This document shows positions 1 to 23,234 of a DNA stretch of 64,000 nt, in pieces. The number at the start of each line of letters is the position of its first letter. Positions within the stretch are counted from its first letter, which is position 1. This stretch comes from Amphiscolops sp. MND2022 (lineage: Eukaryota): assembly GCA_964187785.1 (NCBI GenBank), contig OZ076409.1, positions 16,370,001 through 16,434,000 of the forward strand, written 5' to 3'. A model generated the notes under the pieces. That model ran no database searches. It was given only the letters and a program-made list of their open reading frames with translations, and was not told where the DNA came from. The position numbers were made by a program, and so were the translations under genes.

Positions 1-1
1 A

Positions 2-3000
2 GAATTACTTGACAAGAACCAATGTTCCCTAACAATTCGAGACAAAAAATCGGATTCAATAATTATAAATACTTATGTGAATCCAAAACAGTACAATTTT
101 CAGCCTCTCAAAGATACTATTGAAACACTAGAACTAACATGTGATCAAACTATTTATATGGGAGGGGATTTCAATGCCATCGATCCTTCAGATATCAATG
201 AAGAAAACAAAACGTTCAATATGACTGTAAAATCAAATGATATTCGACTATTGCGATCCAAAAAACTAATACATTTGAACTCAAGTCTCCTTCTGATAGA
301 TCTTGCGCAACTCTTACAGAATCGCCAACCAACGCATTTTGAAACACGGTCTGGAAAACAAAGCCGCATCGATTATATTTTTAGTAATAACCAAAATCTC
401 ACCATCGAAAAAAAACAGGATCGAAACATTGCCCTTTGCTTTTTCCGACCACAAATGCCTCCACCTTTTTCGAAATAGCAACTATCAGTATTCTCAAAAA
501 CTTTGGAAGCTCGATAACATTGTATTTAACTATCCGGAGAAAGTGAAGGAAATACTAGAAACATCTAAAGTCGCATCCGAAAAATTTGGGAACATTGTGT
601 CTTGTCATGATATCTTTAAAGCGAAATTAAGAGATCAACTAAAATACCTTAGTGCTACAAGCAGGAAGATGCTAGTGAAACAAAAAGAAAAAATTCAGAT
701 GGATATTGAAAAACTTGAAGAAAATGGTTCTAAGGGAAATTGTTCTGACCAACAGATCAAACAGAACTTAGAGCACCTGACATGCCTCAAAAATAATCTT
801 CAATTGATCAAAAATGAAGAATCTGAAAATTCATTTCAACAAATCAAAAAATTCTTCAGGGAAGCCAATGATGGAAACACAAAAAATATCAAATGCTTAG
901 CAAAAGCCTCAAGCTTAGCTAAGGATATCAAAAAGATTGAAAAACAAGATGGATCATTCACAGAAGATCCTGACGAAATTTTAAATGAATTCAAATCTTT
1001 TTATGAGAAACTTAGCCAACCAAAATGGAAACCAACAGAAACATCCTCGAAATCTCAGGATAAATTCATTGAAAAGTTTTTTAAACAAAAAAGGAAAAGC
1101 ATTGAAAACATTGAAAAATTGTTCAAAGAAACGTTGGAGGACCCCGACAACGAAATCACAGTATATGAAGTTGAAAAAGCTATCTCTAAACTGAACTCAA
1201 ACAGTGCTCCTGGATCGGATGGACTTACAAGTCAATTATACCAAAACCACAAAAACTTTTTTGCCCCGTATCTTTCAAATCTATTTAATAAAATCAATGA
1301 AAATGGAGAAGTTCCGGACTCATTTAAACATGCAATCATCAAAGTAATTCCTAAGAAGAATAATTCACTGAAGGTATCCGAATTTCGGCCAATTAGTCTC
1401 ATTAATACGGATCAAAAAATTCTTTCTCATGTTCTAGCAGAAAGACTTAAACCTATTTTATCAATATTAATTGGTAATCATCAAAACGCTCATTTACCAA
1501 ATAGAAATATACACATTGCCATACAAAAAATTCAGCATTACGCCCATGAAACTACTCGTAGTCAATCACTTATCGCTATTGACTTCAGTAAAGCTTGCGA
1601 CTGTGTAGAGCGTAGCTTTTTACAAAAACTGATTGAAAAAAGTCCAATCGATAAATTTACTCAAGAAATGATTTTACTTACGTACAAGGATACTTATGCT
1701 TTCATTGGAATGAAAAATGGAATTTCCACAAAATTCAAAATAGATAGAGGGGTGAGACAAGGCTGTCCTCTCTCAGCATTGATTTTCAATCTTTGCCTCG
1801 AACCTCTTCTACAAAGAATTCAAAAATCAAAATACATAAAATCAAAACAACAAACAAAATGTATCGCCTACGCAGATGATATAACGATCAGCCTCTACAA
1901 CAAATCTCTTCGGAAGCTATTGATAATATTGGATCATTTTCACGAAATAGCAGGCTTAGAAGTTAATTTAGCCAAAACTGAAATCCTTTCGAAAGCGGAC
2001 AAATTCTTTGTATCGGAAAAACTAACAAGAGTTACCACAACAAAAATTCTTGGAGTTTACATTTCGCTGAATAAAACTCTCAAAAAAGAAACCAAGAACG
2101 CAATAACGAATGCTTTTAACTCAGCAGAAAAATTCATATTAAAAAATAGTTCGTTCCGCGCGAGAGCTAGAAATATTGAGACTTTTATCTACTTGAAATT
2201 AATTCATCATCTGAGACACGAAAATTTGTATAAAAAGTTTCTTCGAAAAGTTCAATCGAAAATAATAGATGTTTTCTGGCTGTACAAAAAACACAATGTT
2301 AAAAAAGAAATTCTTGAGCTACCAATTGAAGAGGGCGGAGTAAACCTCAAGAACTTCTCAAAATACTACCTAACTGCCAAGATTATGAACTTGAAGTTTC
2401 TAGCGGTTAACCCAAAGGAGAGAAAATACATACAAGAATTAAAGAAATCAAAATTTTTTTCAGAATTAGAAAAACACTTCGAAAAGGAACACATTGAAAT
2501 CCTGGAACTGAAACCAGAAGAATTTACAATCCAACATCATTTCACCACGCTTAATATAACAAAAGAGACAACTTCGAAAGAAATTTACACTTTTTTGAAC
2601 AACTCCTCAATAAACGTCCCACCGTCTCTAAAAACTGAAGTCACAGCAACAAAACAAAATATAGCATCCGAAATTTTAAACTCAGTTACAAAGAACATCT
2701 GGAAAAACAAAAAACTCACTTCGTTTGATAAAAACTATCTTTACTGCTTCCTAATGAACTCGTATCTAGATAAACAAGACAAGTGGCTCAAAAATCTTGT
2801 TCTCCAACCACTATGTTTCGCATGTGAAGCAGAATTTGAAACATGGGACCATTTAATGTTTTCGTGTAAAAAATTGAAAACGTTAACAATGAAGTTAAAC
2901 GTTTTTTCATGGAAGGAAATATGGCTTGATCGAAGTTGTCTCTCTCAAAAACTCCTTGTAGCAATAATGCTCTCGTCGTGGACGGAATCAATTGGAGACT

Positions 3001-3068
3001 ACTTAAAATATTTTTTAGAACGAATGAAAGTAATACTAATGCCAGTTGCAAATCTATCTGATAATTGA
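2..3068 (+). CDS. ORF2 (AP endonuclease + reverse transcriptase + zinc knuckle), 5'-incomplete, with a +1 frameshift at A8 408-415
   Basis: Frame 2 is open from base 2 with APE motifs INTYVNP, GGDFN, SRIDYIF. Frame 3 continues with SDH, then RT motifs SAPGSDG, FRPISLIN, DFSKACD, GVRQGCPLS, YADD (1869-1880) and CxxC-x8-H-x4-C (2814-2867). Stop at 3068. Confidence 0.9.
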
Positions 3069-3090
3069 AGATATGATGCGATTCTAATCT

Positions 3091-3096
3091 AATAAA
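3091..3096 (+). promoter_or_regulatory. Candidate polyadenylation signal of the retrotransposon
   Basis: AATAAA 22 nt after the ORF2 stop and about 20 nt before an A6 run; the context is AT-rich. Confidence 0.4.
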
Positions 3097-3159
3097 TTTC
3101 ATATTGATCTTTTGTAAAAAAGGGATTGATATTATTCATGATTAATTGAATTTTTGAAA

Positions 3160-3270
3160 GCCTAATTGTTGTGATAAACTTATTAAATAGGTAAGTATTC
3201 CAACCCTATTGATAAGTTTTATTTGAAAGCAGACTGCGAAAGTGGTCTGCTGCCCAATTTTTGAACAAGG
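3160..3270 (+). ncRNA. Spliced-leader (SL) RNA gene, copy 1 (normal upstream region replaced by retroelement-side sequence); both ends are inferred
   Basis: Leader 3160-3190 ending AG|GTAAGT. Stem AAACTTATTAAATAGG/CCTATTGATAAGTTT spans the donor. Hairpin AGCAGACTGC-GAAA-GTGGTCTGCT at 3228-3251. Sm site AATTTTTGA at 3256-3264. Confidence 0.88.
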
Positions 3271-3385: not shown

Positions 3386-3504
3386 GGCTACGACCATACT
3401 ATGTTGAATGCACCGGTTCTCGTCCGATCACCGAAGTTAAACAACATAGGGCCTGGTTAGTACTTGGATGGGAGACCGCTTGGGAACACCAGGTGTTGTA
3501 GCCT
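3386..3504 (+). rRNA. 5S rRNA: 5S rRNA copy 1 (C15T variant)
   Basis: GGCTACGACCATAC...CCGATC...GGTTAGTACTTGGATGGGAGACC...GTAGCC; helix I closure, box A and box C, T6 terminator. Confidence 0.98.
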
Positions 3505-4063: not shown

Positions 4064-4174
4064 GCCTAATTGTTGTGATAAACTTATTAAATAGGTAAGT
4101 ATTCCAACCCTATTGATAAGTTTTATTTGAAAGCAGACTGCGAAAGTGGTCTGCTGCCCAATTTTTGAACAAGG
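4064..4174 (+). ncRNA. SL RNA gene, copy 2; representative of the intact copies, which start 226 bp upstream of each 5S gene in standard units
   Basis: Same leader, donor, hairpin and Sm architecture as copy 1. Confidence 0.88.
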
Positions 4175-4289
4175 AACAAGCTAGTCTGCACTAACTTAAA
4201 AGTTACGCGTATTTTGACCGAGAAAATTTTCGTATCATTGTACGTAATTTTGTTGTTAAGCATATAAAGCTATTGATTCTACAATGATC

Positions 4290-4408
4290 GGCTACGACCA
4301 TACCATGTTGAATGCACCGGTTCTCGTCCGATCACCGAAGTTAAACAACATAGGGCCTGGTTAGTACTTGGATGGGAGACCGCTTGGGAACACCAGGTGT
4401 TGTAGCCT
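4290..4408 (+). rRNA. 5S rRNA: 5S rRNA
   Basis: Array copy. Confidence 0.98.
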
Positions 4409-5192
4409 TTTTTGTCAGAAATGTGGTTTAACTTCGGTGACAGTTTTGCAAAAGGGGTCAAATTGAAAAGATAGCAAAAAACGGACAACGCCATTAGAAA
4501 GAGCGTCCAAAAAACCCCCATGCTGAAATTTTCGCCGCCATCACTTGAATTTTCATTGAGTTATGTCATTTTTACTATTTTCACAAAATGTGGTTTAACT
4601 TCGGTGACAGTTTTGCAAAAGGGGTCAAAATGAACAGATAGCAAAAAACGGACAACGGCACTGGAAAGAGGGCCCAAAATTACCCCTAAAACGTGTTTTT
4701 CACACTCCTGAGTCGACTTTTGATAATACATGGAATTTCATTTTTAAGCTTACTAATTTATGCTTTTCAGCATACATTTTCGTAATAGAGTCAAAATTTT
4801 GCTTTCTCACAATTTTTCTGGAATATTTTTGTTTCATCAGATGTCAATAACTTGAAACGTCGTCTTTTCATGAGAATTTCTCCTCAAAACAAGTTGTTGG
4901 CTGGTAATGGTAAGTCCGTACCGCAGATAGGAGTCTCGCGCTCCAAAAATTGACTCTTTGCTTTTAGCCTAATTGTTGTGATAAACTTATTAAATAGGTA
5001 AGTATTCCAACCCTATTGATAAGTTTTATTTGAAAGCAGACTGCGAAAGTGGTCTGCTGCCCAATTTTTGAACAAGGAACAAGCTAGTCTGCACTAACTT
5101 AAAAGTTACGCGTATTTTGACCGAGAAAATTTTCGTATCATTGTACGTAATTTTGTTGTTAAGCATATAAAGCTATTGATTCTACAATGATC

Positions 5193-5311
5193 GGCTACGA
5201 CCATACCATGTTGAATGCACCGGTTCTCGTCCGATCACCGAAGTTAAACAACATAGGGCCTGGTTAGTACTTGGATGGGAGACCGCTTGGGAACACCAGG
5301 TGTTGTAGCCT
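5193..5311 (+). rRNA. 5S rRNA: 5S rRNA
   Basis: Array copy. Confidence 0.98.
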
Positions 5312-6096
5312 TTTTTGTCAGAAATGTGGTTTAACTTCGGTGACAGTTTTGCAAAAGGGGTCAAATTGAAAAGATAGCAAAAAACGGACAACGCCATTAG
5401 AAAGAGCGTCCAAAAAAACCCCCATGCTGAAATTTTCGCCGCCATCACTTGAATTTTCATTGAGTTATGTCATTTTTACTATTTTCACAAAATGTGGTTT
5501 AACTTCGGTGACAGTTTTGCAAAAGGGGTCAAAATGAACAGATAGCAAAAAACGGACAACGGCACTGGAAAGAGGGCCCAAAATTACCCCTAAAACGTGT
5601 TTTTCACACTCCTGAGTCGACTTTTGATAATACATGGAATTTCATTTTTAAGCTTACTAATTTATGCTTTTCAGCATACATTTTCGTAATAGAGTCAAAA
5701 TTTTGCTTTCTCACAATTTTTCTGGAATATTTTTGTTTCATCAGATGTCAATAACTTGAAACGTCGTCTTTTCATGAGAATTTCTCCTCAAAACAAGTTG
5801 TTGGCTGGTAATGGTAAGTCAGTACCGCAGATAGGAGTCTCGCGCTCCAAAAATTGACTCTTTGCTTTTAGCCTAATTGTTGTGATAAACTTATTAAATA
5901 GGTAAGTATTCCAACCCTATTGATAAGTTTTATTTGAAAGCAGACTGCGAAAGTGGTCTGCTGCCCAATTTTTGAACAAGGAAAAAGCTAGTCTGCACTA
6001 ACTTAAAAGTTACGCGTATTTTGACCGAGAAAATTTTCGTATCATTGTACGTAATTTTGTTGTTAAGCATATAAAGCTATTGATTCTACAATGATC

Positions 6097-6215
6097 GGCT
6101 ACGACCATACCATGTTGAATGCACCGGTTCTCGTCCGATCACCGAAGTTAAACAACATAGGGCCTGGTTAGTACTTGGATGGGAGACCGCTTGGGAACAC
6201 CAGGTGTTGTAGCCT
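6097..6215 (+). rRNA. 5S rRNA: 5S rRNA
   Basis: Array copy. Confidence 0.98.
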
Positions 6216-7000
6216 TTTTTGTCAGAAATGTGGTTTAACTTCGGTGACAGTTTTGCAAAAGGGGTCAAATTGAAAAGATAGCAGAAAACGGACAACGCCA
6301 TTAGAAAGAGCGTCCAAAAAAACCCCCATGCTGAAATTTTCGCCGCCATCACTTGAATTTTCATTGAGTTATGTCATTTTTACTATTTTCACAAAATGTG
6401 GTTTAACTTCGGTGACAGTTTTGCAAAAGGGGTCAAAATGAACAGATAGCAAAAAACGGACAACGGCACTGGAAAGAGGGCCCAAAATTACCCCTAAAAC
6501 GTGTTTTTCACACTCCTGAGTCGACTTTTGATAATACATGGAATTTCATTTTTAAGCTTACTAATTTATGCTTTTCAGCATACATTTTCGTAATAGAGTC
6601 AAAATTTTGCTTTCTCACAATTTTTCTGGAATATTTTTGTTTCATCAGATGTCAATAACTTGAAACGTCGTCTTTTCATGAGAATTTCTCCTCAAAACAA
6701 GTTGTTGGCTGGTAATGGTAAGTCCGTACCGCAGATAGGAGTCTCGCGCTCCAAAAATTGACTCTTTGCTTTTAGCCTAATTGTTGTGATAAACTTATTA
6801 AATAGGTAAGTATTCCAACCCTATTGATAAGTTTTATTTGAAAGCAGACTGCGAAAGTGGTCTGCTGCCCAATTTTTGAACAAGGAAAAAGCTAGTCTGC
6901 ACTAACTTAAAAGTTACGCGTATTTTGACCGAGAAAATTTTCGTATCATTGTACGTAATTTTGTTGTTAAGCATATAAAGCTATTGATTCTACAATGATC

Positions 7001-7119
7001 GGCTACGACCATACCATGTTGAATGCACCGGTTCTCGTCCGATCACCGAAGTTAAACAACATAGGGCCTGGTTAGTACTTGGATGGGAGACCGCTTGGGA
7101 ACACCAGGTGTTGTAGCCT
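7001..7119 (+). rRNA. 5S rRNA: 5S rRNA
   Basis: Array copy. Confidence 0.98.
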
Positions 7120-7678
7120 TTTTTGTCAGAAATGTGGTTTAACTTCGGTGACAGTTTTGCAAAAGGGGTCAAATTGAAAAGATAGCAAAAAACGGACAAC
7201 GCCATTAGAAAGAGCGTCCAAAAAAACCCCCATGCTGAAATTTTCGCCGCCATCACTTGAATTTTCATTGAGTTATGTCATTTTTACTATTTTCACAAAA
7301 TGTGGTTTAACTTCGGTGACAGTTTTGCAAAAGGGGTCAAAATGAACAGATAGCAAAAAACGGACAACGGCACTGGAAAGAGGGCCCAAAATTACCCCTA
7401 AAACGTGTTTTTCACACTCCTGAGTCGACTTTTGATAATACATGGAATTTCATTTTTAAGCTTACTAATTTATGCTTTTCAGCATACATTTTCGTAATAG
7501 AGTCAAAATTTTGCTTTCTCACAATTTTTCTGGAATATTTTTGTTTCATCAGATGTCAATAACTTGAAACGTCGTCTTTTCATGAGAATTTCTCCTCAAA
7601 ACAAGTTGTTGGCTGGTAATGGTAAGTCCGTACCGCAGATAGGAGTCTCGCGCTCCAAAAATTGACTCTTTGCTTTTA

Positions 7679-7920
7679 GCCTAATTGTTGTGATAAACTT
7701 ATTAAATAGGTAAGTATTCCAACCTTGGAATATTTCTTGCCTGTTTGAGGTGTGAATCACACTTACTTATCAATAGGGCCCAAAAGCCAGTAACCAAAAA
7801 CCAGTAACCAATAACCAACCTGTACTTACTGTTTGAAAGGTAAGTATTCCAACCCTATTGATAAGTTTTATTTGAAAGCAGACTGCGAAAGTGGTCTGCT
7901 GCCCAATTTTTGAACAAGGA
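7679..7920 (+). ncRNA. SL RNA gene with a 130-bp expansion (113-bp insert + 17-bp duplication)
   Basis: AGGTAAGTATTCCAACC at 7708-7724 and 7838-7854 flanks the insert at 7725-7837. Confidence 0.8.
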
Positions 7921-8034
7921 AAAAGCTAGTCTGCACTAACTTAAAAGTTACGCGTATTTTGACCGAGAAAATTTTCGTATCATTGTACGTAATTTTGTTG
8001 TTAAGCATATAAAGCTATTGATTCTACAATGATC

Positions 8035-8153
8035 GGCTACGACCATACCATGTTGAATGCACCGGTTCTCGTCCGATCACCGAAGTTAAACAACATAGGG
8101 CCTGGTTAGTACTTGGATGGGAGACCGCTTGGGAACACCAGGTGTTGTAGCCT
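8035..8153 (+). rRNA. 5S rRNA: 5S rRNA
   Basis: Array copy. Confidence 0.98.
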
Positions 8154-8938
8154 TTTTTGTCAGAAATGTGGTTTAACTTCGGTGACAGTTTTGCAAAAGG
8201 GGTCAAATTGAAAAGATAGCAAAAAACGGACAACGCCATTAGAAAGAGCGTCCAAAAAAACCCCCATGCTGAAATTTTCGCCGCCATCACTTGAATTTTC
8301 ATTGAGTTATGTCATTTTTACTATTTTCACAAAATGTGGTTTAACTTCGGTGACAGTTTTGCAAAAGGGGTCAAAATGAACAGATAGCAAAAAACGGACA
8401 ACGGCACTGGAAAGAGGGCCCAAAATTACCCCTAAAACGTGTTTTTCACACTCCTGAGTCGACTTTTGATAATACATGGAATTTCATTTTTAAGCTTACT
8501 AATTTATGCTTTTCAGCATACATTTTCGTAATAAAGTCAAAATTTTGCTTTCTCACAATTTTTCTGGAATATTTTTGTTTCATCAGATGTCAATAACTTG
8601 AAACGTCGTCTTTTCATGAGAATTTCTCCTCAAAACAAGTTGTTGGCTGGTAATGGTAAGTCCGTACCGCAGATAGGAGTCTCGCGCTCCAAAAATTGAC
8701 TCTTTGCTTTTAGCCTAATTGTTGTGATAAACTTATTAAATAGGTAAGTATTCCAACCCTATTGATAAGTTTTATTTGAAAGCAGACTGCGAAAGTGGTC
8801 TGCTGCCCAATTTTTGAACAAGGAAAAAGCTAGTCTGCACTAACTTAAAAGTTACGCGTATTTTGACCGAGAAAATTTTCGTATCATTGTACGTAATTTT
8901 GTTGTTAAGCATATAAAGCTATTGATTCTACAATGATC

Positions 8939-9057
8939 GGCTACGACCATACCATGTTGAATGCACCGGTTCTCGTCCGATCACCGAAGTTAAACAACAT
9001 AGGGCCTGGTTAGTACTTGGATGGGAGACCGCTTGGGAACACCAGGTGTTGTAGCCT
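8939..9057 (+). rRNA. 5S rRNA: 5S rRNA
   Basis: Array copy. Confidence 0.98.
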
Positions 9058-9842
9058 TTTTTGTCAGAAATGTGGTTTAACTTCGGTGACAGTTTTGCAA
9101 AAGGGGTCAAATTGAAAAGATAGCAAAAAACGGACAACGCCATTAGAAAGAGCGTCCAAAAAAACCCCCATGCTGAAATTTTCGCCGCCATCACTTGAAT
9201 TTTCATTGAGTTATGTCATTTTTACTATTTTCACAAAATGTGGTTTAACTTCGGTGACAGTTTTGCAAAAGGGGTCAAAATGAACAGATAGCAAAAAACG
9301 GACAACGGCATTGGAAAGAGGGCCCAAAATTACCCCTAAAACGTGTTTTTCACACTCCTGAGTCGACTTTTGATAATACATGGAATTTCATTTTTAAGCT
9401 TACTAATTTATGCTTTTCAGCATACATTTTCGTAATAGAGTCAAAATTTTGCTTTCTCACAATTTTTCTGGAATATTTTTGTTTCATCAGATGTCAATAA
9501 CTTGAAACGTCGTCTTTTCATGAGAATTTCTCCTCAAAACAAGTTGTTGGCTGGTAATGGTAAGTCCGTACCGCAGATAGGAGTCTCGCGCTCCAAAAAT
9601 TGACTCTTTGCTTTTAGCCTAATTGTTGTGATAAACTTATTAAATAGGTAAGTATTCCAACCCTATTGATAAGTTTTATTTGAAAGCAGACTGCGAAAGT
9701 GGTCTGCTGCCCAATTTTTGAACAAGGAAAAAGCTAGTCTGCACTAACTTAAAAGTTACGCGTATTTTGACCGAGAAAATTTTCGTATCATTGTACGTAA
9801 TTTTGTTGTTAAGCATATAAAGCTATTGATTCTACAATGATC

Positions 9843-9961
9843 GGCTACGACCATACCATGTTGAATGCACCGGTTCTCGTCCGATCACCGAAGTTAAACA
9901 ACATAGGGCCTGGTTAGTACTTGGATGGGAGACCGCTTGGGAACACCAGGTGTTGTAGCCT
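9843..9961 (+). rRNA. 5S rRNA: 5S rRNA
   Basis: Array copy. Confidence 0.98.
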
Positions 9962-10746
9962 TTTTTGTCAGAAATGTGGTTTAACTTCGGTGACAGTTTT
10001 GCAAAAGGGGTCAAATTGAAAAGATAGCAAAAAACGGACAACGCCATTAGAAAGAGCGTCCAAAAAAACCCCCATGCTGAAATTTTCGCCGCCATCACTT
10101 GAATTTTCATTGAGTTATGTCATTTTTACTATTTTCACAAAATGTGGTTTAACTTCGGTGACAGTTTTGCAAAAGGGGTCAAAATGAACAGATAGCAAAA
10201 AACGGACAACGGCACTGGAAAGAGGGCCCAAAATTACCCCTAAAACGTGTTTTTCACACTCCTGAGTCGACTTTTGATAATACATGGAATTTCATTTTTA
10301 AGCTTACTAATTTATGCTTTTCAGCATACATTTTCGTAATAGAGTCAAAATTTTGCTTTCTCACAATTTTTCTGGAATATTTGTGTTTCATCAGATGTCA
10401 ATAACTTGAAACGTCGTCTTTTCATGAGAATTTCTCCTCAAAACAAGTTGTTGGCTGGTAATGGTAAGTCCGTACCGCAGATAGGAGTCTCGCGCTCCAA
10501 AAATTGACTCTTTGCTTTTAGCCTAATTGTTGTGATAAACTTATTAAATAGGTAAGTATTCCAACCCTATTGATAAGTTTTATTTGAAAGCAGACTGCGA
10601 AAGTGGTCTGCTGCCCAATTTTTGAACAAGGAAAAAGCTAGTCTGCACTAACTTAAAAGTTACGCGTATTTTGACCGAGAAAATTTTCGTATCATTGTAC
10701 GTAATTTTGTTGTTAAGCATATAAAGCTATTGATTCTACAATGATC

Positions 10747-10865
10747 GGCTACGACCATACCATGTTGAATGCACCGGTTCTCGTCCGATCACCGAAGTTA
10801 AACAACATAGGGCCTGGTTAGTACTTGGATGGGAGACCGCTTGGGAACACCAGGTGTTGTAGCCT
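10747..10865 (+). rRNA. 5S rRNA: 5S rRNA
   Basis: Array copy. Confidence 0.98.
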
Positions 10866-11482
10866 TTTTTGTCAGAAATGTGGTTTAACTTCGGTGACAG
10901 TTTTGCAAAAGGGGTCAAAATGAACAGATAGCAAAAAACGGACAACGGCACTGGAAAGAGGGCCCAAAATTACCCCTAAAACGTGTTTTTCACACTCCTG
11001 AGTCGACTTTTGATAATACATGGAATTTCATTTTTAAGCTTACTAATTTATGCTTTTCAGCATACATTTTCGTAATAAAGTCAAAATTTTGCTTTCTCAC
11101 AATTTTTCTGGAATATTTTTGTTTCATCAGATGTCAATAACTTGAAACGTCGTCTTTTCATGAGAATTTCTCCTCAAAACAAGTTGTTGGCTGGTAATGG
11201 TAAGTCCGTACCGCAGATAGGAGTCTCGCGCTCCAAAAATTGACTCTTTGCTTTTAGCCTAATTGTTGTGATAAACTTATTAAATAGGTAAGTATTCCAA
11301 CCCTATTGATAAGTTTTATTTGAAAGCAGACTGCGAAAGTGGTCTGCTGCCCAATTTTTGAACAAGGAAAAAGCTAGTCTGCACTAACTTAAAAGTTACG
11401 CGTATTTTGACCGAGAAAATTTTCGTATCATTGTACGTAATTTTGTTGTTAAGCATATAAAGCTATTGATTCTACAATGATC

Positions 11483-11601
11483 GGCTACGACCATACCATG
11501 TTGAATGCACCGGTTCTCGTCCGATCACCGAAGTTAAACAACATAGGGCCTGGTTAGTACTTGGATGGGAGACCGCTTGGGAACACCAGGTGTTGTAGCC
11601 T
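11483..11601 (+). rRNA. 5S rRNA: 5S rRNA
   Basis: Array copy. Confidence 0.98.
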
Positions 11602-12386
11602 TTTTTGTCAGAAATGTGGTTTAACTTCGGTGACAGTTTTGCAAAAGGGGTCAAATTGAAAAGATAGCAAAAAACGGACAACGCCATTAGAAAGAGCGTC
11701 CAAAAAAACCCCCATGCTGAAATTTTCGCCGCCATCACTTGAATTTTCATTGAGTTATGTCATTTTTACTATTTTCACAAAATGTGGTTTAACTTCGGTG
11801 ACAGTTTTGCAAAAGGGGTCAAAATGAACAGATAGCAAAAAACGGACAACGGCACTGGAAAGAGGGCCCAAAATTACCCCTAAAACGTGTTTTTCACACT
11901 CCTGAGTCGACTTTTGATAATACATGGAATTTCATTTTTAAGCTTACTAATTTATGCTTTTCAGCATACATTTTCGTAATAGAGTCAAAATTTTGCTTTC
12001 TCACAATTTTTCTGGAATATTTGTGTTTCATCAGATGTCAATAACTTGAAACGTCGTCTTTTCATGAGAATTTCTCCTCAAAACAAGTTGTTGGCTGGTA
12101 ATGGTAAGTCCGTACCGCAGATAGGAGTCTCGCGCTCCAAAAATTGACTCTTTGCTTTTAGCCTAATTGTTGTGATAAACTTATTAAATAGGTAAGTATT
12201 CCAACCCTATTGATAAGTTTTATTTGAAAGCAGACTGCGAAAGTGGTCTGCTGCCCAATTTTTGAACAAGGAAAAAGCTAGTCTGCACTAACTTAAAAGT
12301 TACGCGTATTTTGACCGAGAAAATTTTCGTATCATTGTACGTAATTTTGTTGTTAAGCATATAAAGCTATTGATTCTACAATGATC

Positions 12387-12505
12387 GGCTACGACCATAC
12401 CATGTTGAATGCACCGGTTCTCGTCCGATCACCGAAGTTAAACAACATAGGGCCTGGTTAGTACTTGGATGGGAGACCGCTTGGGAACACCAGGTGTTGT
12501 AGCCT
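12387..12505 (+). rRNA. 5S rRNA: 5S rRNA
   Basis: Array copy. Confidence 0.98.
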
Positions 12506-13290
12506 TTTTTGTCAGAAATGTGGTTTAACTTCGGTGACAGTTTTGCAAAAGGGGTCAAATTGAAAAGATAGCAAAAAACGGACAACGCCATTAGAAAGAG
12601 CGTCCAAAAAAACCCCCATGCTGAAATTTTCGCCGCCATCACTTGAATTTTCATTGAGTTATGTCATTTTTACTATTTTCACAAAATGTGGTTTAACTTC
12701 GGTGACAGTTTTGCAAAAGGGGTCAAAATGAACAGATAGCAAAAAACGGACAACGGCATTGGAAAGAGGGCCCAAAATTACCCCTAAAACGTGTTTTTCA
12801 CACTCCTGAGTCGACTTTTGATAATACATGGAATTTCATTTTTAAGCTTACTAATTTATGCTTTTCAGCATACATTTTCGTAATAGAGTCAAAATTTTGC
12901 TTTCTCACAATTTTTCTGGAATATTTTTGTTTCATCAGATGTCAATAACTTGAAACGTCGTCTTTTCATGAGAATTTCTCCTCAAAACAAGTTGTTGGCT
13001 GGTAATGGTAAGTCCGTACCGCAGATAGGAGTCTCGCGCTCCAAAAATTGACTCTTTGCTTTTAGCCTAATTGTTGTGATAAACTTATTAAATAGGTAAG
13101 TATTCCAACCCTATTGATAAGTTTTATTTGAAAGCAGACTGCGAAAGTGGTCTGCTGCCCAATTTTTGAACAAGGAAAAAGCTAGTCTGCACTAACTTAA
13201 AAGTTACGCGTATTTTGACCGAGAAAATTTTCGTATCATTGTACGTAATTTTGTTGTTAAGCATATAAAGCTATTGATTCTACAATGATC

Positions 13291-13409
13291 GGCTACGACC
13301 ATACCATGTTGAATGCACCGGTTCTCGTCCGATCACCGAAGTTAAACAACATAGGGCCTGGTTAGTACTTGGATGGGAGACCGCTTGGGAACACCAGGTG
13401 TTGTAGCCT
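13291..13409 (+). rRNA. 5S rRNA: 5S rRNA
   Basis: Array copy. Confidence 0.98.
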
Positions 13410-14194
13410 TTTTTGTCAGAAATGTGGTTTAACTTCGGTGACAGTTTTGCAAAAGGGGTCAAATTGAAAAGATAGCAAAAAACGGACAACGCCATTAGAA
13501 AGAGCGTCCAAAAAAACCCCCATGCTGAAATTTTCGCCGCCATCACTTGAATTTTCATTGAGTTATGTCATTTTTACTATTTTCACAAAATGTGGTTTAA
13601 CTTCGGTGACAGTTTTGCAAAAGGGGTCAAAATGAACAGATAGCAAAAAACGGACAACGGCACTGGAAAGAGGGCCCAAAATTACCCCTAAAACGTGTTT
13701 TTCACACTCCTGAGTCGACTTTTGATAATACATGGAATTTCATTTTTAAGCTTACTAATTTATGCTTTTCAGCATACATTTTCGTAATAAAGTCAAAATT
13801 TTGCTTTCTCACAATTTTTCTGGAATATTTTTGTTTCATCAGATGTCAATAACTTGAAACGTCGTCTTTTCATGAGAATTTCTCCTCAAAACAAGTTGTT
13901 GGCTGGTAATGGTAAGTCCGTACCGCAGATAGGAGTCTCGCGCTCCAAAAATTGACTCTTTGCTTTTAGCCTAATTGTTGTGATAAACTTATTAAATAGG
14001 TAAGTATTCCAACCCTATTGATAAGTTTTATTTGAAAGCAGACTGCGAAAGTGGTCTGCTGCCCAATTTTTGAACAAGGAAAAAGCTAGTCTGCACTAAC
14101 TTAAAAGTTACGCGTATTTTGACCGAGAAAATTTTCGTATCATTGTACGTAATTTTGTTGTTAAGCATATAAAGCTATTGATTCTACAATGATC

Positions 14195-14313
14195 GGCTAC
14201 GACCATACCATGTTGAATGCACCGGTTCTCGTCCGATCACCGAAGTTAAACAACATAGGGCCTGGTTAGTACTTGGATGGGAGACCGCTTGGGAACACCA
14301 GGTGTTGTAGCCT
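14195..14313 (+). rRNA. 5S rRNA: 5S rRNA
   Basis: Array copy. Confidence 0.98.
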
Positions 14314-15098
14314 TTTTTGTCAGAAATGTGGTTTAACTTCGGTGACAGTTTTGCAAAAGGGGTCAAATTGAAAAGATAGCAAAAAACGGACAACGCCATT
14401 AGAAAGAGCGTCCAAAAAAACCCCCATGCTGAAATTTTCGCCGCCATCACTTGAATTTTCATTGAGTTATGTCATTTTTACTATTTTCACAAAATGTGGT
14501 TTAACTTCGGTGACAGTTTTGCAAAAGGGGTCAAAATGAACAGATAGCAAAAAACGGACAACGGCACTGGAAAGAGGGCCCAAAATTACCCCTAAAACGT
14601 GTTTTTCACACTCCTGAGTCGACTTTTGATAATACATGGAATTTCATTTTTAAGCTTACTAATTTATGCTTTTCAGCATACATTTTCGTAATAGAGTCAA
14701 AATTTTGCTTTCTCACAATTTTTCTGGAATATTTGTGTTTCATCAGATGTCAATAACTTGAAACGTCGTCTTTTCATGAGAATTTCTCCTCAAAACAAGT
14801 TGTTGGCTGGTAATGGTAAGTCCGTACCGCAGATAGGAGTCTCGCGCTCCAAAAATTGACTCTTTGCTTTTAGCCTAATTGTTGTGATAAACTTATTAAA
14901 TAGGTAAGTATTCCAACCCTATTGATAAGTTTTATTTGAAAGCAGACTGCGAAAGTGGTCTGCTGCCCAATTTTTGAACAAGGAAAAAGCTAGTCTGCAC
15001 TAACTTAAAAGTTACGCGTATTTTGACCGAGAAAATTTTCGTATCATTGTACGTAATTTTGTTGTTAAGCATATAAAGCTATTGATTCTACAATGATC

Positions 15099-15217
15099 GG
15101 CTACGACCATACCATGTTGAATGCACCGGTTCTCGTCCGATCACCGAAGTTAAACAACATAGGGCCTGGTTAGTACTTGGATGGGAGACCGCTTGGGAAC
15201 ACCAGGTGTTGTAGCCT
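15099..15217 (+). rRNA. 5S rRNA: 5S rRNA
   Basis: Array copy. Confidence 0.98.
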
Positions 15218-16002
15218 TTTTTGTCAGAAATGTGGTTTAACTTCGGTGACAGTTTTGCAAAAGGGGTCAAATTGAAAAGATAGCAAAAAACGGACAACGC
15301 CATTAGAAAGAGCGTCCAAAAAAACCCCCATGCTGAAATTTTCGCCGCCATCACTTGAATTTTCATTGAGTTATGTCATTTTTACTATTTTCACAAAATG
15401 TGGTTTAACTTCGGTGACAGTTTTGCAAAAGGGGTCAAAATGAACAGATAGCAAAAAACGGACAACGGCATTGGAAAGAGGGCCCAAAATTACCCCTAAA
15501 ACGTGTTTTTCACACTCCTGAGTCGACTTTTGATAATACATGGAATTTCATTTTTAAGCTTACTAATTTATGCTTTTCAGCATACATTTTCGTAATAGAG
15601 TCAAAATTTTGCTTTCTCACAATTTTTCTGGAATATTTTTGTTTCATCAGATGTCAATAACTTGAAACGTCGTCTTTTCATGAGAATTTCTCCTCAAAAC
15701 AAGTTGTTGGCTGGTAATGGTAAGTCCGTACCGCAGATAGGAGTCTCGCGCTCCAAAAATTGACTCTTTGCTTTTAGCCTAATTGTTGTGATAAACTTAT
15801 TAAATAGGTAAGTATTCCAACCCTATTGATAAGTTTTATTTGAAAGCAGACTGCGAAAGTGGTCTGCTGCCCAATTTTTGAACAAGGAAAAAGCTAGTCT
15901 GCACTAACTTAAAAGTTACGCGTATTTTGACCGAGAAAATTTTCGTATCATTGTACGTAATTTTGTTGTTAAGCATATAAAGCTATTGATTCTACAATGA
16001 TC

Positions 16003-16121
16003 GGCTACGACCATACCATGTTGAATGCACCGGTTCTCGTCCGATCACCGAAGTTAAACAACATAGGGCCTGGTTAGTACTTGGATGGGAGACCGCTTGG
16101 GAACACCAGGTGTTGTAGCCT
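16003..16121 (+). rRNA. 5S rRNA: 5S rRNA
   Basis: Array copy. Confidence 0.98.
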
Positions 16122-16906
16122 TTTTTGTCAGAAATGTGGTTTAACTTCGGTGACAGTTTTGCAAAAGGGGTCAAATTGAAAAGATAGCAAAAAACGGACA
16201 ACGCCATTAGAAAGAGCGTCCAAAAAAACCCCCATGCTGAAATTTTCGCCGCCATCACTTGAATTTTCATTGAGTTATGTCATTTTTACTATTTTCACAA
16301 AATGTGGTTTAACTTCGGTGACAGTTTTGCAAAAGGGGTCAAAATGAACAGATAGCAAAAAACGGACAACGGCACTGGAAAGAGGGCCCAAAATTACCCC
16401 TAAAACGTGTTTTTCACACTCCTGAGTCGACTTTTGATAATACATGGAATTTCATTTTTAAGCTTACTAATTTATGCTTTTCAGCATACATTTTCGTAAT
16501 AGAGTCAAAATTTTGCTTTCTCACAATTTTTCTGGAATATTTTTGTTTCATCAGATGTCAATAACTTGAAACGTCGTCTTTTCATGAGAATTTCTCCTCA
16601 AAACAAGTTGTTGGCTGGTAATGGTAAGTCAGTACCGCAGATAGGAGTCTCGCGCTCCAAAAATTGACTCTTTGCTTTTAGCCTAATTGTTGTGATAAAC
16701 TTATTAAATAGGTAAGTATTCCAACCCTATTGATAAGTTTTATTTGAAAGCAGACTGCGAAAGTGGTCTGCTGCCCAATTTTTGAACAAGGAAAAAGCTA
16801 GTCTGCACTAACTTAAAAGTTACGCGTATTTTGACCGAGAAAATTTTCGTATCATTGTACGTAATTTTGTTGTTAAGCATATAAAGCTATTGATTCTACA
16901 ATGATC

Positions 16907-17025
16907 GGCTACGACCATACCATGTTGAATGCACCGGTTCTCGTCCGATCACCGAAGTTAAACAACATAGGGCCTGGTTAGTACTTGGATGGGAGACCGC
17001 TTGGGAACACCAGGTGTTGTAGCCT
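16907..17025 (+). rRNA. 5S rRNA: 5S rRNA
   Basis: Array copy. Confidence 0.98.
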
Positions 17026-17810
17026 TTTTTGTCAGAAATGTGGTTTAACTTCGGTGACAGTTTTGCAAAAGGGGTCAAATTGAAAAGATAGCAAAAAACG
17101 GACAACGCCATTAGAAAGAGCGTCCAAAAAAACCCCCATGCTGAAATTTTCGCCGCCATCACTTGAATTTTCATTGAGTTATGTCATTTTTACTATTTTC
17201 ACAAAATGTGGTTTAACTTCGGTGACAGTTTTGCAAAAGGGGTCAAAATGAACAGATAGCAAAAAACGGACAACGGCACTGGAAAGAGGGCCCAAAATTA
17301 CCCCTAAAACGTGTTTTTCACACTCCTGAGTCGACTTTTGATAATACATGGAATTTCATTTTTAAGCTTACTAATTTATGCTTTTCAGCATACATTTTCG
17401 TAATAGAGTCAAAATTTTGCTTTCTCACAATTTTTCTGGAATATTTGTGTTTCATCAGATGTCAATAACTTGAAACGTCGTCTTTTCATGAGAATTTCTC
17501 CTCAAAACAAGTTGTTGGCTGGTAATGGTAAGTCCGTACCGCAGATAGGAGTCTCGCGCTCCAAAAATTGACTCTTTGCTTTTAGCCTAATTGTTGTGAT
17601 AAACTTATTAAATAGGTAAGTATTCCAACCCTATTGATAAGTTTTATTTGAAAGCAGACTGCGAAAGTGGTCTGCTGCCCAATTTTTGAACAAGGAAAAA
17701 GCTAGTCTGCACTAACTTAAAAGTTACGCGTATTTTGACCGAGAAAATTTTCGTATCATTGTACGTAATTTTGTTGTTAAGCATATAAAGCTATTGATTC
17801 TACAATGATC

Positions 17811-17929
17811 GGCTACGACCATACCATGTTGAATGCACCGGTTCTCGTCCGATCACCGAAGTTAAACAACATAGGGCCTGGTTAGTACTTGGATGGGAGA
17901 CCGCTTGGGAACACCAGGTGTTGTAGCCT
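17811..17929 (+). rRNA. 5S rRNA: 5S rRNA
   Basis: Array copy. Confidence 0.98.
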
Positions 17930-18714
17930 TTTTTGTCAGAAATGTGGTTTAACTTCGGTGACAGTTTTGCAAAAGGGGTCAAATTGAAAAGATAGCAAAA
18001 AACGGACAACGCCATTAGAAAGAGCGTCCAAAAAAACCCCCATGCTGAAATTTTCGCCGCCATCACTTGAATTTTCATTGAGTTATGTCATTTTTACTAT
18101 TTTCACAAAATGTGGTTTAACTTCGGTGACAGTTTTGCAAAAGGGGTCAAAATGAACAGATAGCAAAAAACGGACAACGGCATTGGAAAGAGGGCCCAAA
18201 ATTACCCCTAAAACGTGTTTTTCACACTCCTGAGTCGACTTTTGATAATACATGGAATTTCATTTTTAAGCTTACTAATTTATGCTTTTCAGCATACATT
18301 TTCGTAATAGAGTCAAAATTTTGCTTTCTCACAATTTTTCTGGAATATTTTTGTTTCATCAGATGTCAATAACTTGAAACGTCGTCTTTTCATGAGAATT
18401 TCTCCTCAAAACAAGTTGTTGGCTGGTAATGGTAAGTCCGTACCGCAGATAGGAGTCTCGCGCTCCAAAAATTGACTCTTTGCTTTTAGCCTAATTGTTG
18501 TGATAAACTTATTAAATAGGTAAGTATTCCAACCCTATTGATAAGTTTTATTTGAAAGCAGACTGCGAAAGTGGTCTGCTGCCCAATTTTTGAACAAGGA
18601 AAAAGCTAGTCTGCACTAACTTAAAAGTTACGCGTATTTTGACCGAGAAAATTTTCGTATCATTGTACGTAATTTTGTTGTTAAGCATATAAAGCTATTG
18701 ATTCTACAATGATC

Positions 18715-18833
18715 GGCTACGACCATACCATGTTGAATGCACCGGTTCTCGTCCGATCACCGAAGTTAAACAACATAGGGCCTGGTTAGTACTTGGATGG
18801 GAGACCGCTTGGGAACACCAGGTGTTGTAGCCT
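18715..18833 (+). rRNA. 5S rRNA: 5S rRNA
   Basis: Array copy. Confidence 0.98.
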
Positions 18834-19618
18834 TTTTTGTCAGAAATGTGGTTTAACTTCGGTGACAGTTTTGCAAAAGGGGTCAAATTGAAAAGATAGC
18901 AAAAAACGGACAACGCCATTAGAAAGAGCGTCCAAAAAAACCCCCATGCTGAAATTTTCGCCGCCATCACTTGAATTTTCATTGAGTTATGTCATTTTTA
19001 CTATTTTCACAAAATGTGGTTTAACTTCGGTGACAGTTTTGCAAAAGGGGTCAAAATGAACAGATAGCAAAAAACGGACAACGGCATTGGAAAGAGGGCC
19101 CAAAATTACCCCTAAAACGTGTTTTTCACACTCCTGAGTCGACTTTTGATAATACATGGAATTTCATTTTTAAGCTTACTAATTTATGCTTTTCAGCATA
19201 CATTTTCGTAATAGAGTCAAAATTTTGCTTTCTCACAATTTTTCTGGAATATTTTTGTTTCATCAGATGTCAATAACTTGAAACGTCGTCTTTTCATGAG
19301 AATTTCTCCTCAAAACAAGTTGTTGGCTGGTAATGGTAAGTCCGTACCGCAGATAGGAGTCTCGCGCTCCAAAAATTGACTCTTTGCTTTTAGCCTAATT
19401 GTTGTGATAAACTTATTAAATAGGTAAGTATTCCAACCCTATTGATAAGTTTTATTTGAAAGCAGACTGCGAAAGTGGTCTGCTGCCCAATTTTTGAACA
19501 AGGAAAAAGCTAGTCTGCACTAACTTAAAAGTTACGCGTATTTTGACCGAGAAAATTTTCGTATCATTGTACGTAATTTTGTTGTTAAGCATATAAAGCT
19601 ATTGATTCTACAATGATC

Positions 19619-19737
19619 GGCTACGACCATACCATGTTGAATGCACCGGTTCTCGTCCGATCACCGAAGTTAAACAACATAGGGCCTGGTTAGTACTTGG
19701 ATGGGAGACCGCTTGGGAACACCAGGTGTTGTAGCCT
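19619..19737 (+). rRNA. 5S rRNA: 5S rRNA
   Basis: Array copy. Confidence 0.98.
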
Positions 19738-20522
19738 TTTTTGTCAGAAATGTGGTTTAACTTCGGTGACAGTTTTGCAAAAGGGGTCAAATTGAAAAGA
19801 TAGCAAAAAACGGACAACGCCATTAGAAAGAGCGTCCAAAAAAACCCCCATGCTGAAATTTTCGCCGCCATCACTTGAATTTTCATTGAGTTATGTCATT
19901 TTTACTATTTTCACAAAATGTGGTTTAACTTCGGTGACAGTTTTGCAAAAGGGGTCAAAATGAACAGATAGCAAAAAACGGACAACGGCATTGGAAAGAG
20001 GGCCCAAAATTACCCCTAAAACGTGTTTTTCACACTCCTGAGTCGACTTTTGATAATACATGGAATTTCATTTTTAAGCTTACTAATTTATGCTTTTCAG
20101 CATACATTTTCGTAATAGAGTCAAAATTTTGCTTTCTCACAATTTTTCTGGAATATTTTTGTTTCATCAGATGTCAATAACTTGAAACGTCGTCTTTTCA
20201 TGAGAATTTCTCCTCAAAACAAGTTGTTGGCTGGTAATGGTAAGTCCGTACCGCAGATAGGAGTCTCGCGCTCCAAAAATTGACTCTTTGCTTTTAGCCT
20301 AATTGTTGTGATAAACTTATTAAATAGGTAAGTATTCCAACCCTATTGATAAGTTTTATTTGAAAGCAGACTGCGAAAGTGGTCTGCTGCCCAATTTTTG
20401 AACAAGGAAAAAGCTAGTCTGCACTAACTTAAAAGTTACGCGTATTTTGACCGAGAAAATTTTCGTATCATTGTACGTAATTTTGTTGTTAAGCATATAA
20501 AGCTATTGATTCTACAATGATC

Positions 20523-20641
20523 GGCTACGACCATACCATGTTGAATGCACCGGTTCTCGTCCGATCACCGAAGTTAAACAACATAGGGCCTGGTTAGTAC
20601 TTGGATGGGAGACCGCTTGGGAACACCAGGTGTTGTAGCCT
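20523..20641 (+). rRNA. 5S rRNA: 5S rRNA
   Basis: Array copy. Confidence 0.98.
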
Positions 20642-21426
20642 TTTTTGTCAGAAATGTGGTTTAACTTCGGTGACAGTTTTGCAAAAGGGGTCAAATTGAA
20701 AAGATAGCAAAAAACGGACAACGCCATTAGAAAGAGCGTCCAAAAAAACCCCCATGCTGAAATTTTCGCCGCCATCACTTGAATTTTCATTGAGTTATGT
20801 CATTTTTACTATTTTCACAAAATGTGGTTTAACTTCGGTGACAGTTTTGCAAAAGGGGTCAAAATGAACAGATAGCAAAAAACGGACAACGGCATTGGAA
20901 AGAGGGCCCAAAATTACCCCTAAAACGTGTTTTTCACACTCCTGAGTCGACTTTTGATAATACATGGAATTTCATTTTTAAGCTTACTAATTTATGCTTT
21001 TCAGCATACATTTTCGTAATAGAGTCAAAATTTTGCTTTCTCACAATTTTTCTGGAATATTTTTGTTTCATCAGATGTCAATAACTTGAAACGTCGTCTT
21101 TTCATGAGAATTTCTCCTCAAAACAAGTTGTTGGCTGGTAATGGTAAGTCCGTACCGCAGATAGGAGTCTCGCGCTCCAAAAATTGACTCTTTGCTTTTA
21201 GCCTAATTGTTGTGATAAACTTATTAAATAGGTAAGTATTCCAACCCTATTGATAAGTTTTATTTGAAAGCAGACTGCGAAAGTGGTCTGCTGCCCAATT
21301 TTTGAACAAGGAAAAAGCTAGTCTGCACTAACTTAAAAGTTACGCGTATTTTGACCGAGAAAATTTTCGTATCATTGTACGTAATTTTGTTGTTAAGCAT
21401 ATAAAGCTATTGATTCTACAATGATC

Positions 21427-21545
21427 GGCTACGACCATACCATGTTGAATGCACCGGTTCTCGTCCGATCACCGAAGTTAAACAACATAGGGCCTGGTTA
21501 GTACTTGGATGGGAGACCGCTTGGGAACACCAGGTGTTGTAGCCT
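21427..21545 (+). rRNA. 5S rRNA: 5S rRNA
   Basis: Array copy. Confidence 0.98.
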
Positions 21546-22330
21546 TTTTTGTCAGAAATGTGGTTTAACTTCGGTGACAGTTTTGCAAAAGGGGTCAAAT
21601 TGAAAAGATAGCAAAAAACGGACAACGCCATTAGAAAGAGCGTCCAAAAAAACCCCCATGCTGAAATTTTCGCCGCCATCACTTGAATTTTCATTGAGTT
21701 ATGTCATTTTTACTATTTTCACAAAATGTGGTTTAACTTCGGTGACAGTTTTGCAAAAGGGGTCAAAATGAACAGATAGCAAAAAACGGACAACGGCATT
21801 GGAAAGAGGGCCCAAAATTACCCCTAAAACGTGTTTTTCACACTCCTGAGTCGACTTTTGATAATACATGGAATTTCATTTTTAAGCTTACTAATTTATG
21901 CTTTTCAGCATACATTTTCGTAATAGAGTCAAAATTTTGCTTTCTCACAATTTTTCTGGAATATTTTTGTTTCATCAGATGTCAATAACTTGAAACGTCG
22001 TCTTTTCATGAGAATTTCTCCTCAAAACAAGTTGTTGGCTGGTAATGGTAAGTCCGTACCGCAGATAGGAGTCTCGCGCTCCAAAAATTGACTCTTTGCT
22101 TTTAGCCTAATTGTTGTGATAAACTTATTAAATAGGTAAGTATTCCAACCCTATTGATAAGTTTTATTTGAAAGCAGACTGCGAAAGTGGTCTGCTGCCC
22201 AATTTTTGAACAAGGAAAAAGCTAGTCTGCACTAACTTAAAAGTTACGCGTATTTTGACCGAGAAAATTTTCGTATCATTGTACGTAATTTTGTTGTTAA
22301 GCATATAAAGCTATTGATTCTACAATGATC

Positions 22331-22449
22331 GGCTACGACCATACCATGTTGAATGCACCGGTTCTCGTCCGATCACCGAAGTTAAACAACATAGGGCCTG
22401 GTTAGTACTTGGATGGGAGACCGCTTGGGAACACCAGGTGTTGTAGCCT
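22331..22449 (+). rRNA. 5S rRNA: 5S rRNA
   Basis: Array copy. Confidence 0.98.
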
Positions 22450-23234
22450 TTTTTGTCAGAAATGTGGTTTAACTTCGGTGACAGTTTTGCAAAAGGGGTC
22501 AAATTGAAAAGATAGCAAAAAACGGACAACGCCATTAGAAAGAGCGTCCAAAAAAAACCCCATGCTGAAATTTTCGCCGCCATCACTTGAATTTTCATTG
22601 AGTTATGTCATTTTTACTATTTTCACAAAATGTGGTTTAACTTCGGTGACAGTTTTGCAAAAGGGGTCAAAATGAACAGATAGCAAAAAACGGACAACGG
22701 CACTGGAAAGAGGGCCCAAAATTACCCCTAAAACGTGTTTTTCACACTCCTGAGTCGACTTTTGATAATACATGGAATTTCATTTTTAAGCTTACTAATT
22801 TATGCTTTTCAGCATACATTTTCGTAATAGAGTCAAAATTTTGCTTTCTCACAATTTTTCTGGAATATTTTTGTTTCATCAGATGTCAATAACTTGAAAC
22901 GTCGTCTTTTCATGAGAATTTCTCCTCAAAACAAGTTGTTGGCTGGTAATGGTAAGTCCGTACCGCAGATAGGAGTCTCGCGCTCCAAAAATTGACTCTT
23001 TGCTTTTAGCCTAATTGTTGTGATAAACTTATTAAATAGGTAAGTATTCCAACCCTATTGATAAGTTTTATTTGAAAGCAGACTGCGAAAGTGGTCTGCT
23101 GCCCAATTTTTGAACAAGGAACAAGCTAGTCTGCACTAACTTAAAAGTTACGCGTATTTTGACCGAGAAAATTTTCGTATCATTGTACGTAATTTTGTTG
23201 TTAAGCATATAAAGCTATTGATTCTACAATGATC

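Follow-up and report, generated by a model that had tools for sequence, protein, structure and literature searches.

Can a retrotransposon with an apurinic/apyrimidinic endonuclease (APE) insert specifically into spliced-leader (SL) RNA genes, and is it transcribed from the SL promoter left at its 5′ side? This question is raised by a 64,000-nucleotide stretch of the acoel Amphiscolops sp. MND2022 (GCA_964187785.1, contig OZ076409.1, positions 16,370,001 to 16,434,000, forward strand; hereafter the window), which begins inside such an element and passes from it straight into an SL RNA gene. An earlier account (the sequence-only reading) had placed the element at SL +1, in the orientation of the gene and without poly(A), and had suggested that it targets SL genes and could use their promoter. 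We conclude with good confidence that the window holds a dead, 5′-truncated copy of an APE-type, L1-group family (family A) that inserts at SL +1 and is likely transcribed from the SL promoter.

At the joint the sequence reads ...GAATTTTTGAA-AGCCTAATTG, with the break at 3158/3159, and normal units read ...CTCTTTGCTTTT-AGCCTAATTG. Re-reading the junction upheld the join at SL +1, its orientation and the lack of poly(A), with one refinement: A3159 is an element base, because copies outside the SL arrays (off-array copies) also finish ...TTTTTGAAA where the pre-insertion base is not A. The joint becomes 3159|3160, 91 nt past the stop codon (3066-3068) of the second open reading frame (ORF2). The SL start previously placed at G3160 coincides with the first base of the published leader; the 31-nt leader at 3160-3190 agrees at every base with the one published for the acoel Symsagittifera roscoffensis (PMC9911081). 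The locus is made up of the following parts:

1..478, + strand: C-terminal half of the ORF2 APE endonuclease (GGDFN, RIDY and SDH region), with a frameshift from an extra A in the A8 run 408-415
300..3068, + strand: remaining ORF2, with reverse transcriptase (RT; Pfam RVT_1 at about 1347-2057, E 1e-31) and a CCHC zinc finger (2814-2867)
3069..3159, + strand: 3′ untranslated region (UTR) of 91 nt with the fixed TTTTTGAAA end, A6 (3116-3121) internal, without poly(A)
3160..3177, + strand: 3′ copy of the target-site duplication (leader +1..+18); the 5′ copy is at G000:C1:16368670-16368687
3160..3270, + strand: SL RNA gene body, parted from its own upstream flank; leader 3160-3190, donor GTAAGT 3191-3196

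The copy as a whole spans G000:C1:16368688-16373159 (4472 bp) and is truncated at its 5′ end inside ORF1; the 1313 bp that precede the window (G000:C1:16368688-16370000) contain the truncated ORF1 and the start of ORF2 with a premature stop. Its 5′ flank is not unrelated DNA, as at a simple array boundary, but normal SL spacer followed by GCCTAATTGTTGTGATAA, with further units of SL and 5S ribosomal RNA (rRNA) genes beyond. An 18-bp target-site duplication encloses the element, its last 3 nt overlapping element sequence at the 5′ junction. Because the copy shares 99.4% DNA identity with an intact 5.1-kb full-length copy on C13, and its ORF2 carries both the premature stop and the endonuclease frameshift, we consider it a recent but dead insertion within the array.

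Does family A target SL genes, or did one copy merely land there? A pattern search of the 1.067-Gb genome, which has 1189 exact leader-plus-donor sites, gave 14 family A 3′ ends. All 14 finish TTTTGAAA, extending as far as TTTTTGAAA, which disposes of the caveat that the element may end at A6 3116-3121. Eight of the 14 lie directly before SL +1 and six before other DNA. Neither finding that would have refuted SL targeting was made: the 5′ flank is SL spacer, and the six non-SL 3′ flanks share the GCCT-like start of the leader (GCCT in four, GGCCT in one, and GCTT in one whose 5′ copy reads GCCT). The eight on-array copies are spread over C1, C12 and C13; the arrays that hold them differ in spacer, and their 5′ ends are of three kinds. 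Since they differ from one another at 7-75 sites in 2.6 kb and intermix across chromosomes in the copy tree, they represent at least five separate events, and probably eight. The duplications of family A insertions measure 15-18 bp. A random junction would hit SL +1 with a probability of 5.6e-7. Even if insertion is confined to GCCT, of which the genome has about 4.2 million sites, the SL share is 2.8e-4 and the probability of at least 5 of 11 on target is 9e-16; given this ratio of leader sites to GCCT sites, the SL preference is not a chance outcome.

The two SL sites at which insertions were found are shared by at least eight autonomous families (A-H; ORF2 identity 25-67%), five ORF1-only families (N1-N5) and a 114-bp insert resembling a short interspersed element (SINE). 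Families A-F insert at +1 (ORF2 identities 31-52%), H is 67% identical to D, and G, whose ORF2 is 25-28% identical to those of the other families, inserts at +31, the exon-intron joint. Gene orientation and start are retained in every family, even where identity falls to 25%. A scan of about 350 kb of array DNA, which looked at leader starts only, gave 60 insertions at SL +1. Genome-wide counts, which cover A, B, E, G, N1 and the short insert and include array-level duplicates, put 3′ ends at the SL target in 19/19 cases for B, 36/36 for G (at +31), 6/8 for E and 25/26 for N1 (exact; the 26th stands before a leader variant), as well as in 29 of the 30 loci read for the short insert (of 40 matches). 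None of the 81 3′ ends of B, G and N1 lies off-array. A published rule recognizes target preference when more than 20% of flanks are of one type (PMC4494074), a level exceeded by A (8/14), B (19/19) and G (36/36). The ORF1-only elements are 1.4-2.0 kb long, with mostly open frames, a single ORF of 388-536 codons and no RT; since in ORF1 they share only 18-29% identity with the autonomous families (BLASTP down to E 3e-19), they are old lineages.

Four observations weigh against this picture. First, six of the 14 family A ends are off-array, and targeting is not absolute. Second, among ten older relatives (78-85% identity), all eight with a readable 3′ end are off-array, likely through array turnover that removes old copies, although weaker past specificity fits too. 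Third, array-level duplication, including a 35-36 kb block on C1, inflates the on-array counts. Fourth, SL families cannot be told from the tRNA- or U2-associated families described below by the hairpin loop of their endonuclease, and the determinant of specificity was not located there. With the fixed junction, the duplication and the eight ends at SL +1, we nevertheless regard SL targeting by an APE-type, L1-group family as close to certain.

The endonuclease assigned by the sequence-only reading was borne out by alignment. Two family A copies are intact (ORF1 of 476 codons, ORF2 of 1108 aa), and ORF2 aligns with human L1 ORF2p over residues 5-878 (E 7e-55), with the APE catalytic N, E, Y, D-x-N, D and D-H present. 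Against R2 the match is E 1e-20, and the RT scores 190 bits (L1) versus 77 (R2), a comparison between these two because the RTE, I and CR1 clades had no entry among the hits. Pfam Exo_endo_phos matches to ORF2 were mostly below the curated cut-off and zf-RVT gave a weak match; ORF2 ends about 60 aa past the CCHC finger, and five ORF2s gave no Pfam match to a restriction-like endonuclease domain. With a predicted N-terminal APE before the RT, an RT nearer to L1 than to R2, and two ORFs with a C-terminal CCHC, family A is an APE-type long interspersed element of the L1 group. It falls outside the strict, vertebrate L1-like clade: fish and frog L1-like proteins sit on their own branch, and the GAAA tail is fixed in 14/14 ends. 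It also departs from the CRE/NeSL structure in having an APE and no restriction-like domain, while sharing a fixed SL insertion site. N1-N5, with an ORF1 homologous to the autonomous one and nothing else, are HAL1-like.

Families A-H and about 30 database proteins form one clade, supported at 100/100 in a 21-row tree and at 0.98 in a 118-row RT tree from which a coverage filter had removed D_ORF2 and eight database proteins. This clade stands apart from vertebrate L1-like proteins and all other hits (24-30% identity to the acoel ORF2s) in a tree without a labelled Tx1 reference. Cluster look-ups of the database proteins returned no Tx1 or L1 names, and a metagenome scan yielded 80 loci of 20-34% identity, of which none, on that measure, belongs to the acoel clade. 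A Pfam search of eight ORF1 proteins gave nothing significant. The ORF1 core common to autonomous and ORF1-only families was modelled with a predicted local distance difference test (pLDDT) of 87 and matches PDB proteins with tandem RNA recognition motifs (RRMs; E 3e-6), at template-modelling (TM) scores of only 0.3-0.4 owing to a differing domain arrangement; a CCHC-type knuckle, C-x2-C...H-x4-C, follows the core. This prediction fits an RNA-binding ORF1.

Is the element transcribed from the SL promoter? Eighteen off-array loci were chosen by their 3′ ends and not by a leader head. All eight of these 18 copies with an intact 5′ end (L037, L038, L041, L045, L134, L136, L137 and L232) show 9-17 nt of leader separating the element from its own duplication; nine truncated copies have no leader head, and one further copy could not be classed. 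The 7-bp duplication of L038 was missed by the automatic search and read by eye, and the duplication search found none for L140 and L231. A 476-bp secondary insertion lies in an A run of one off-array family A copy (L037:7104-7579). On the arrays, the head of full-length copies has a fixed length per family: 15 nt in A (6/6), 17 in N1/N5 (22/22) and 13 or 11 in B. Five truncated on-array copies have 16-18 nt of leader. The family A head ends at +15 in 4/4 off-array full-length copies as well, and the family G head is 31 nt, ends in AG and has a fixed T29A change in 5/5 copies read that is absent from the host leaders read. Because off-array copies carry the head, because its length is fixed by family and because G keeps its T29A, the head travels with the RNA. 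In addition, TTA or TTTA precedes the head in 3/8 off-array copies and at one on-array junction, matching SL -4..-1, which puts the predicted start of the element RNA between -4 and +1. These leader pieces, an indirect sign read from DNA alone, make it probable that the element is transcribed from the upstream SL promoter, as had been suggested.

The alternative that survives best is that the elements target SL genes but have an internal promoter, the leader head being a permanent part of their 5′ end. SINEU elements have small nuclear RNA (snRNA) heads as permanent 5′ ends. A promoter could fit into the 5′ UTRs of 200-430 nt, each family has its fixed head, and intact or nearly intact off-array copies exist. 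Two points speak directly against SL-promoter use: a 5′ UTR of about 250 nt could hold a promoter, and the T's that precede the head may have been added without a template, the RNA itself starting at A(-1). An internal promoter does not, however, account well for heads of only 13-17 nt that always start at or just before SL +1, for up to four upstream genomic bases in 3/8 off-array heads and at one on-array junction, or for the orientation and start shared by families down to 25% identity. We consider it unlikely, though worth keeping in view.

With transcription from the SL promoter, insertion would proceed in four steps. (i) The RNA would begin where the SL RNA does, 0-4 nt ahead of the published G, continue from 13-17 nt of leader into the element and, on its 3′ side, probably extend beyond the fixed A3-A4 end into the leader copy that follows; read-through into GCCUAAUUG is the expectation of target-paired priming. 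(ii) The APE would nick the bottom strand at 5′-AGGC/NAA-3′; the cuts predicted for single families are AGGC/TAA (A), TACC/TAT (G) and AGCC/AAA (U2 family). (iii) The read-through GCCU would pair with the freed primer, standing in for a poly(A) tail. (iv) In truncated copies, a second nick 16-18 bp downstream would give rise to the duplication; in full-length copies, the leader-head cDNA would anneal to the target, fixing the family-specific head length. To the ORF1-only elements and the 114-bp insert, ORF2 would be supplied in trans.

The 3′ ends bear on the priming step. SL and U2 families have a fixed A3-A4 end even off-array, and the tails of tRNA-side relatives are A runs some 8 nt long or longer. 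Off-array 3′ flanks start with GCC in 13/18 cases and with GC in 16/18 (p 2e-25), and the base at -2 of pre-insertion sites, read by eye, is T in 10/13. This upstream T preference points to putative endonuclease recognition of TTN/GCCT. For the non-LTR (non-long-terminal-repeat) element R1Bm, downstream target sequence is required for accurate priming (PMC7265360). That the fixed, tail-less end reflects pairing of a read-through RNA with the primer is an account we favour slightly; L135, where GC is present at the 3′ junction and missing from the 5′ target copy, supports pairing, whereas the extra G before GCCT at the off-array junction of L003/L037 is not predicted by simple read-through pairing.

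If the endonuclease merely preferred TTN/GCCT, copies might pile up in the arrays through tolerance and unequal crossing-over. Consistent with this, off-array sites share GCC(T), the C1 array has a duplicated block and old relatives are off-array. Such an explanation must nonetheless contend with the scarcity of SL sites (1189) beside GCCT sites (about 4.2 million), with on-array family A copies that have distinct 5′ ends and group across chromosomes, and with the absence of off-array copies among the 81 3′ ends of B, G and N1; we hold it to be improbable. Because a four-base motif cannot explain the array preference, we propose tethering to the active SL locus as a further step in SL targeting.

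Still more doubtful is acquisition of the leader by trans-splicing of element RNA, with insertion at SL genes through leader homology. About 30% of genes are trans-spliced in the published acoel genome (PMC9911081), and family G does hold 31 nt ending in AG. Trans-splicing, however, adds the whole 31-nt leader, and families A-F, H and N hold only +1..+11/17; the fixed T29A of G is absent from the host leaders read; and a spliced head leaves a 3′ junction at the 5′ end of the leader unexplained. For family A, trans-splicing is excluded because the head stops at +15. Finally, a simple array boundary or assembly artefact, to which an N gap and near-identical units in the window might lend colour, has a negligible probability and was rejected, since SL/5S units go on 5′ of the element, a duplication flanks it and an identical junction is present on C1, C12, C13 and small contigs, where the spacers are of different types.

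How have targets changed among the relatives of these families? We examined 15 further stretches around matches of one clade member. A U2 sister family is joined at GGCTAAGATC (U2 +19) in 4/4 copies read:

L233-L236; C4:81.09-81.11 Mb, C5:28.05-28.07 Mb: U2 sister family in U2 snRNA arrays, with U2 +1..+24 on its 5′ side

Other elements are nested at the same U2 site (L233-L236). The site of Keno in U2 lies further downstream than U2 +19. Three related families with A-run tails occupy five loci (L237, L238, L239, L241 and L242); at two of the five, ARAGORN places a tRNA-Lys or tRNA-Ala gene (L237:1747-1819, L238:6265-6336) head-to-head with the element, no more than about 100 bp from its 5′ end. 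At two more of these loci, tRNA-like sequence was seen by eye. With ARAGORN calls beside two of five loci, the T3 "tRNA" label is weak. C/D/H/A/E/F form the sister group of the tRNA-side branch (98/99); B and the U2 family fall outside the two, and G branches at a deeper level. On this tree the SL label requires three changes: SL targeting is either old and left twice, or was gained up to three times. The order of the target switches is not settled, because the root depends on distant outgroups and long branches meet. A single clade of +1-site families (including P0002 and P0014, whose targets are unassigned), a group defined once a first tree had been inspected, was rejected (approximately unbiased test, p-AU 0.008).

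The SL gene at the junction (3160..3270) has two hairpins (one at 3228-3251), an Sm-like AATTTTTGA at 3256-3264 and a fold z of -3.3. The rest of the window is array:

3386..3504, + strand: 5S rRNA gene of the first unit
4064..64000, + strand: homogeneous 904-bp SL/5S array, nearly without insertions; 67 5S genes in the window

Insertions are polarised, with 38 in the 49 5S units of G000:C1:16230001-16370000 versus three short inserts in the 67 window units; the window array is possibly an insertion-free, active block. One unit (10521-11256) is 736 bp long, with one internal spacer repeat copy fewer, and a 200-N assembly gap lies at 44059-44258. Upstream, at G000:C1 about 16269700-16340000, the 35-36 kb block of units and elements is repeated in the same order, which reflects either segmental duplication or an assembly artefact. 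At L246:846 and 1734, SL units lack most of the leader, the spacer being joined to CTTATTAAATAG.

The three short inserts of the window belong to the 114-bp SINE-like type:

7725..7838, + strand: 114-bp insert at the +31 site, with a 16-bp duplication GGTAAGTATTCCAACC and a 3′ end like that of family G
23959..24072, + strand: second copy
24993..25106, + strand: third copy

The insert contains antisense pieces of the SL donor and intron and brings in a second AG/GTAAGT donor. The lengthened SL RNA retains the predicted Sm site and might still function. In the one copy folded, the SL gene with its insert has a z of -6.4 versus shuffles and the insert pairs with SL sequence on both sides, a fold that fits a read-through RNA. 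An orphan short insert lies outside the arrays at L128 (C2:4985211-4988327), with at least 65 bp of SL upstream spacer 5′ and a look-alike target 3′. Among the longer elements, a family B copy at G000:C12:56263572 has about 300 extra bases and an N/F-like 3′ end, a tail swap between families, and D and N3 have an identical 43-bp tail.

Taken together, these elements may represent an old acoel radiation of promoterless, tail-less L1-group elements in the SL/5S array, with both RNA ends guided by the target, repeated target switches (SL +1, SL +31, U2 +19, tRNA-adjacent), non-autonomous passengers that have ORF1 only, and a SINE that in its fold pairs with the SL RNA on either side; we judge this whole picture as likely to hold as to fail. 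What matters more broadly is that these families reach SL genes by a third route, independent of the other two and based on an APE endonuclease, the known SL-targeting elements found being of the restriction-like-endonuclease kind only. With intact ORF2s and four small-RNA-gene targets in one clade, a single genome provides a natural series on APE target choice, for which the endonuclease, RNA-DNA pairing and tethering to promoter factors are candidate determinants and which bears on the engineering of RNA-based gene insertion. The heavy insertion load upstream also raises the question how an SL block is kept free of insertions in a host where about 30% of genes are trans-spliced.

How do these elements compare with known systems? 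We found no report of an APE element in SL genes in the literature searched; subscription papers and Repbase lay outside the search, and a prior entry is possible. The SL-gene targeting elements described are CRE and NeSL, which use a restriction-like endonuclease, and the targets described for the Tx1 clade are U2, U5, 5S, microsatellites and transposons (PMC4640811, PMC8869645, PMC4494074, PMC12278014), examples being Keno (U2), Kibi/Koshi (microsatellites), Tx1 (Tx1D) and Tx1-Mar (PMC4494074, PMC4640811). The accessible portion of PMC13708176 makes no mention of Tx1 or snRNA targets. Like target-specific Tx1-clade elements, the acoel families combine APE and RT, belong to the L1 group and insert into a multicopy small-RNA gene at one fixed base; in both, moreover, a single target is used by several families together with a dependent SINE (PMC4494074, PMC4640811). 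Unlike them, the acoel families target the SL RNA gene, at two sites, have a short ORF2 (about 1090 aa) and form a separate clade (100/100) in a comparison made without labelled Tx1 references.

With CRE/SLACS/CZAR of trypanosomatids and NeSL of nematodes they share a non-LTR nature and a fixed position in the SL gene, and with CRE also duplications (PMC12278014, PMC4640811), but they have an N-terminal APE, two ORFs, no C-terminal restriction-like domain and no poly(A); the common SL target is convergent. R1Bm and R2 of ribosomal DNA resemble them in likely co-transcription with the host gene and in using flanking target sequence in the RNA for priming (PMC7265360, PMC4494074), although those belong to other clades and another host gene and the acoel case is drawn from DNA junctions only. 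Finally, N1-N5 resemble HAL1 (half-L1) in being non-autonomous and having ORF1 only (PMC5753468); unlike HAL1, they are site-specific and reside in SL genes.

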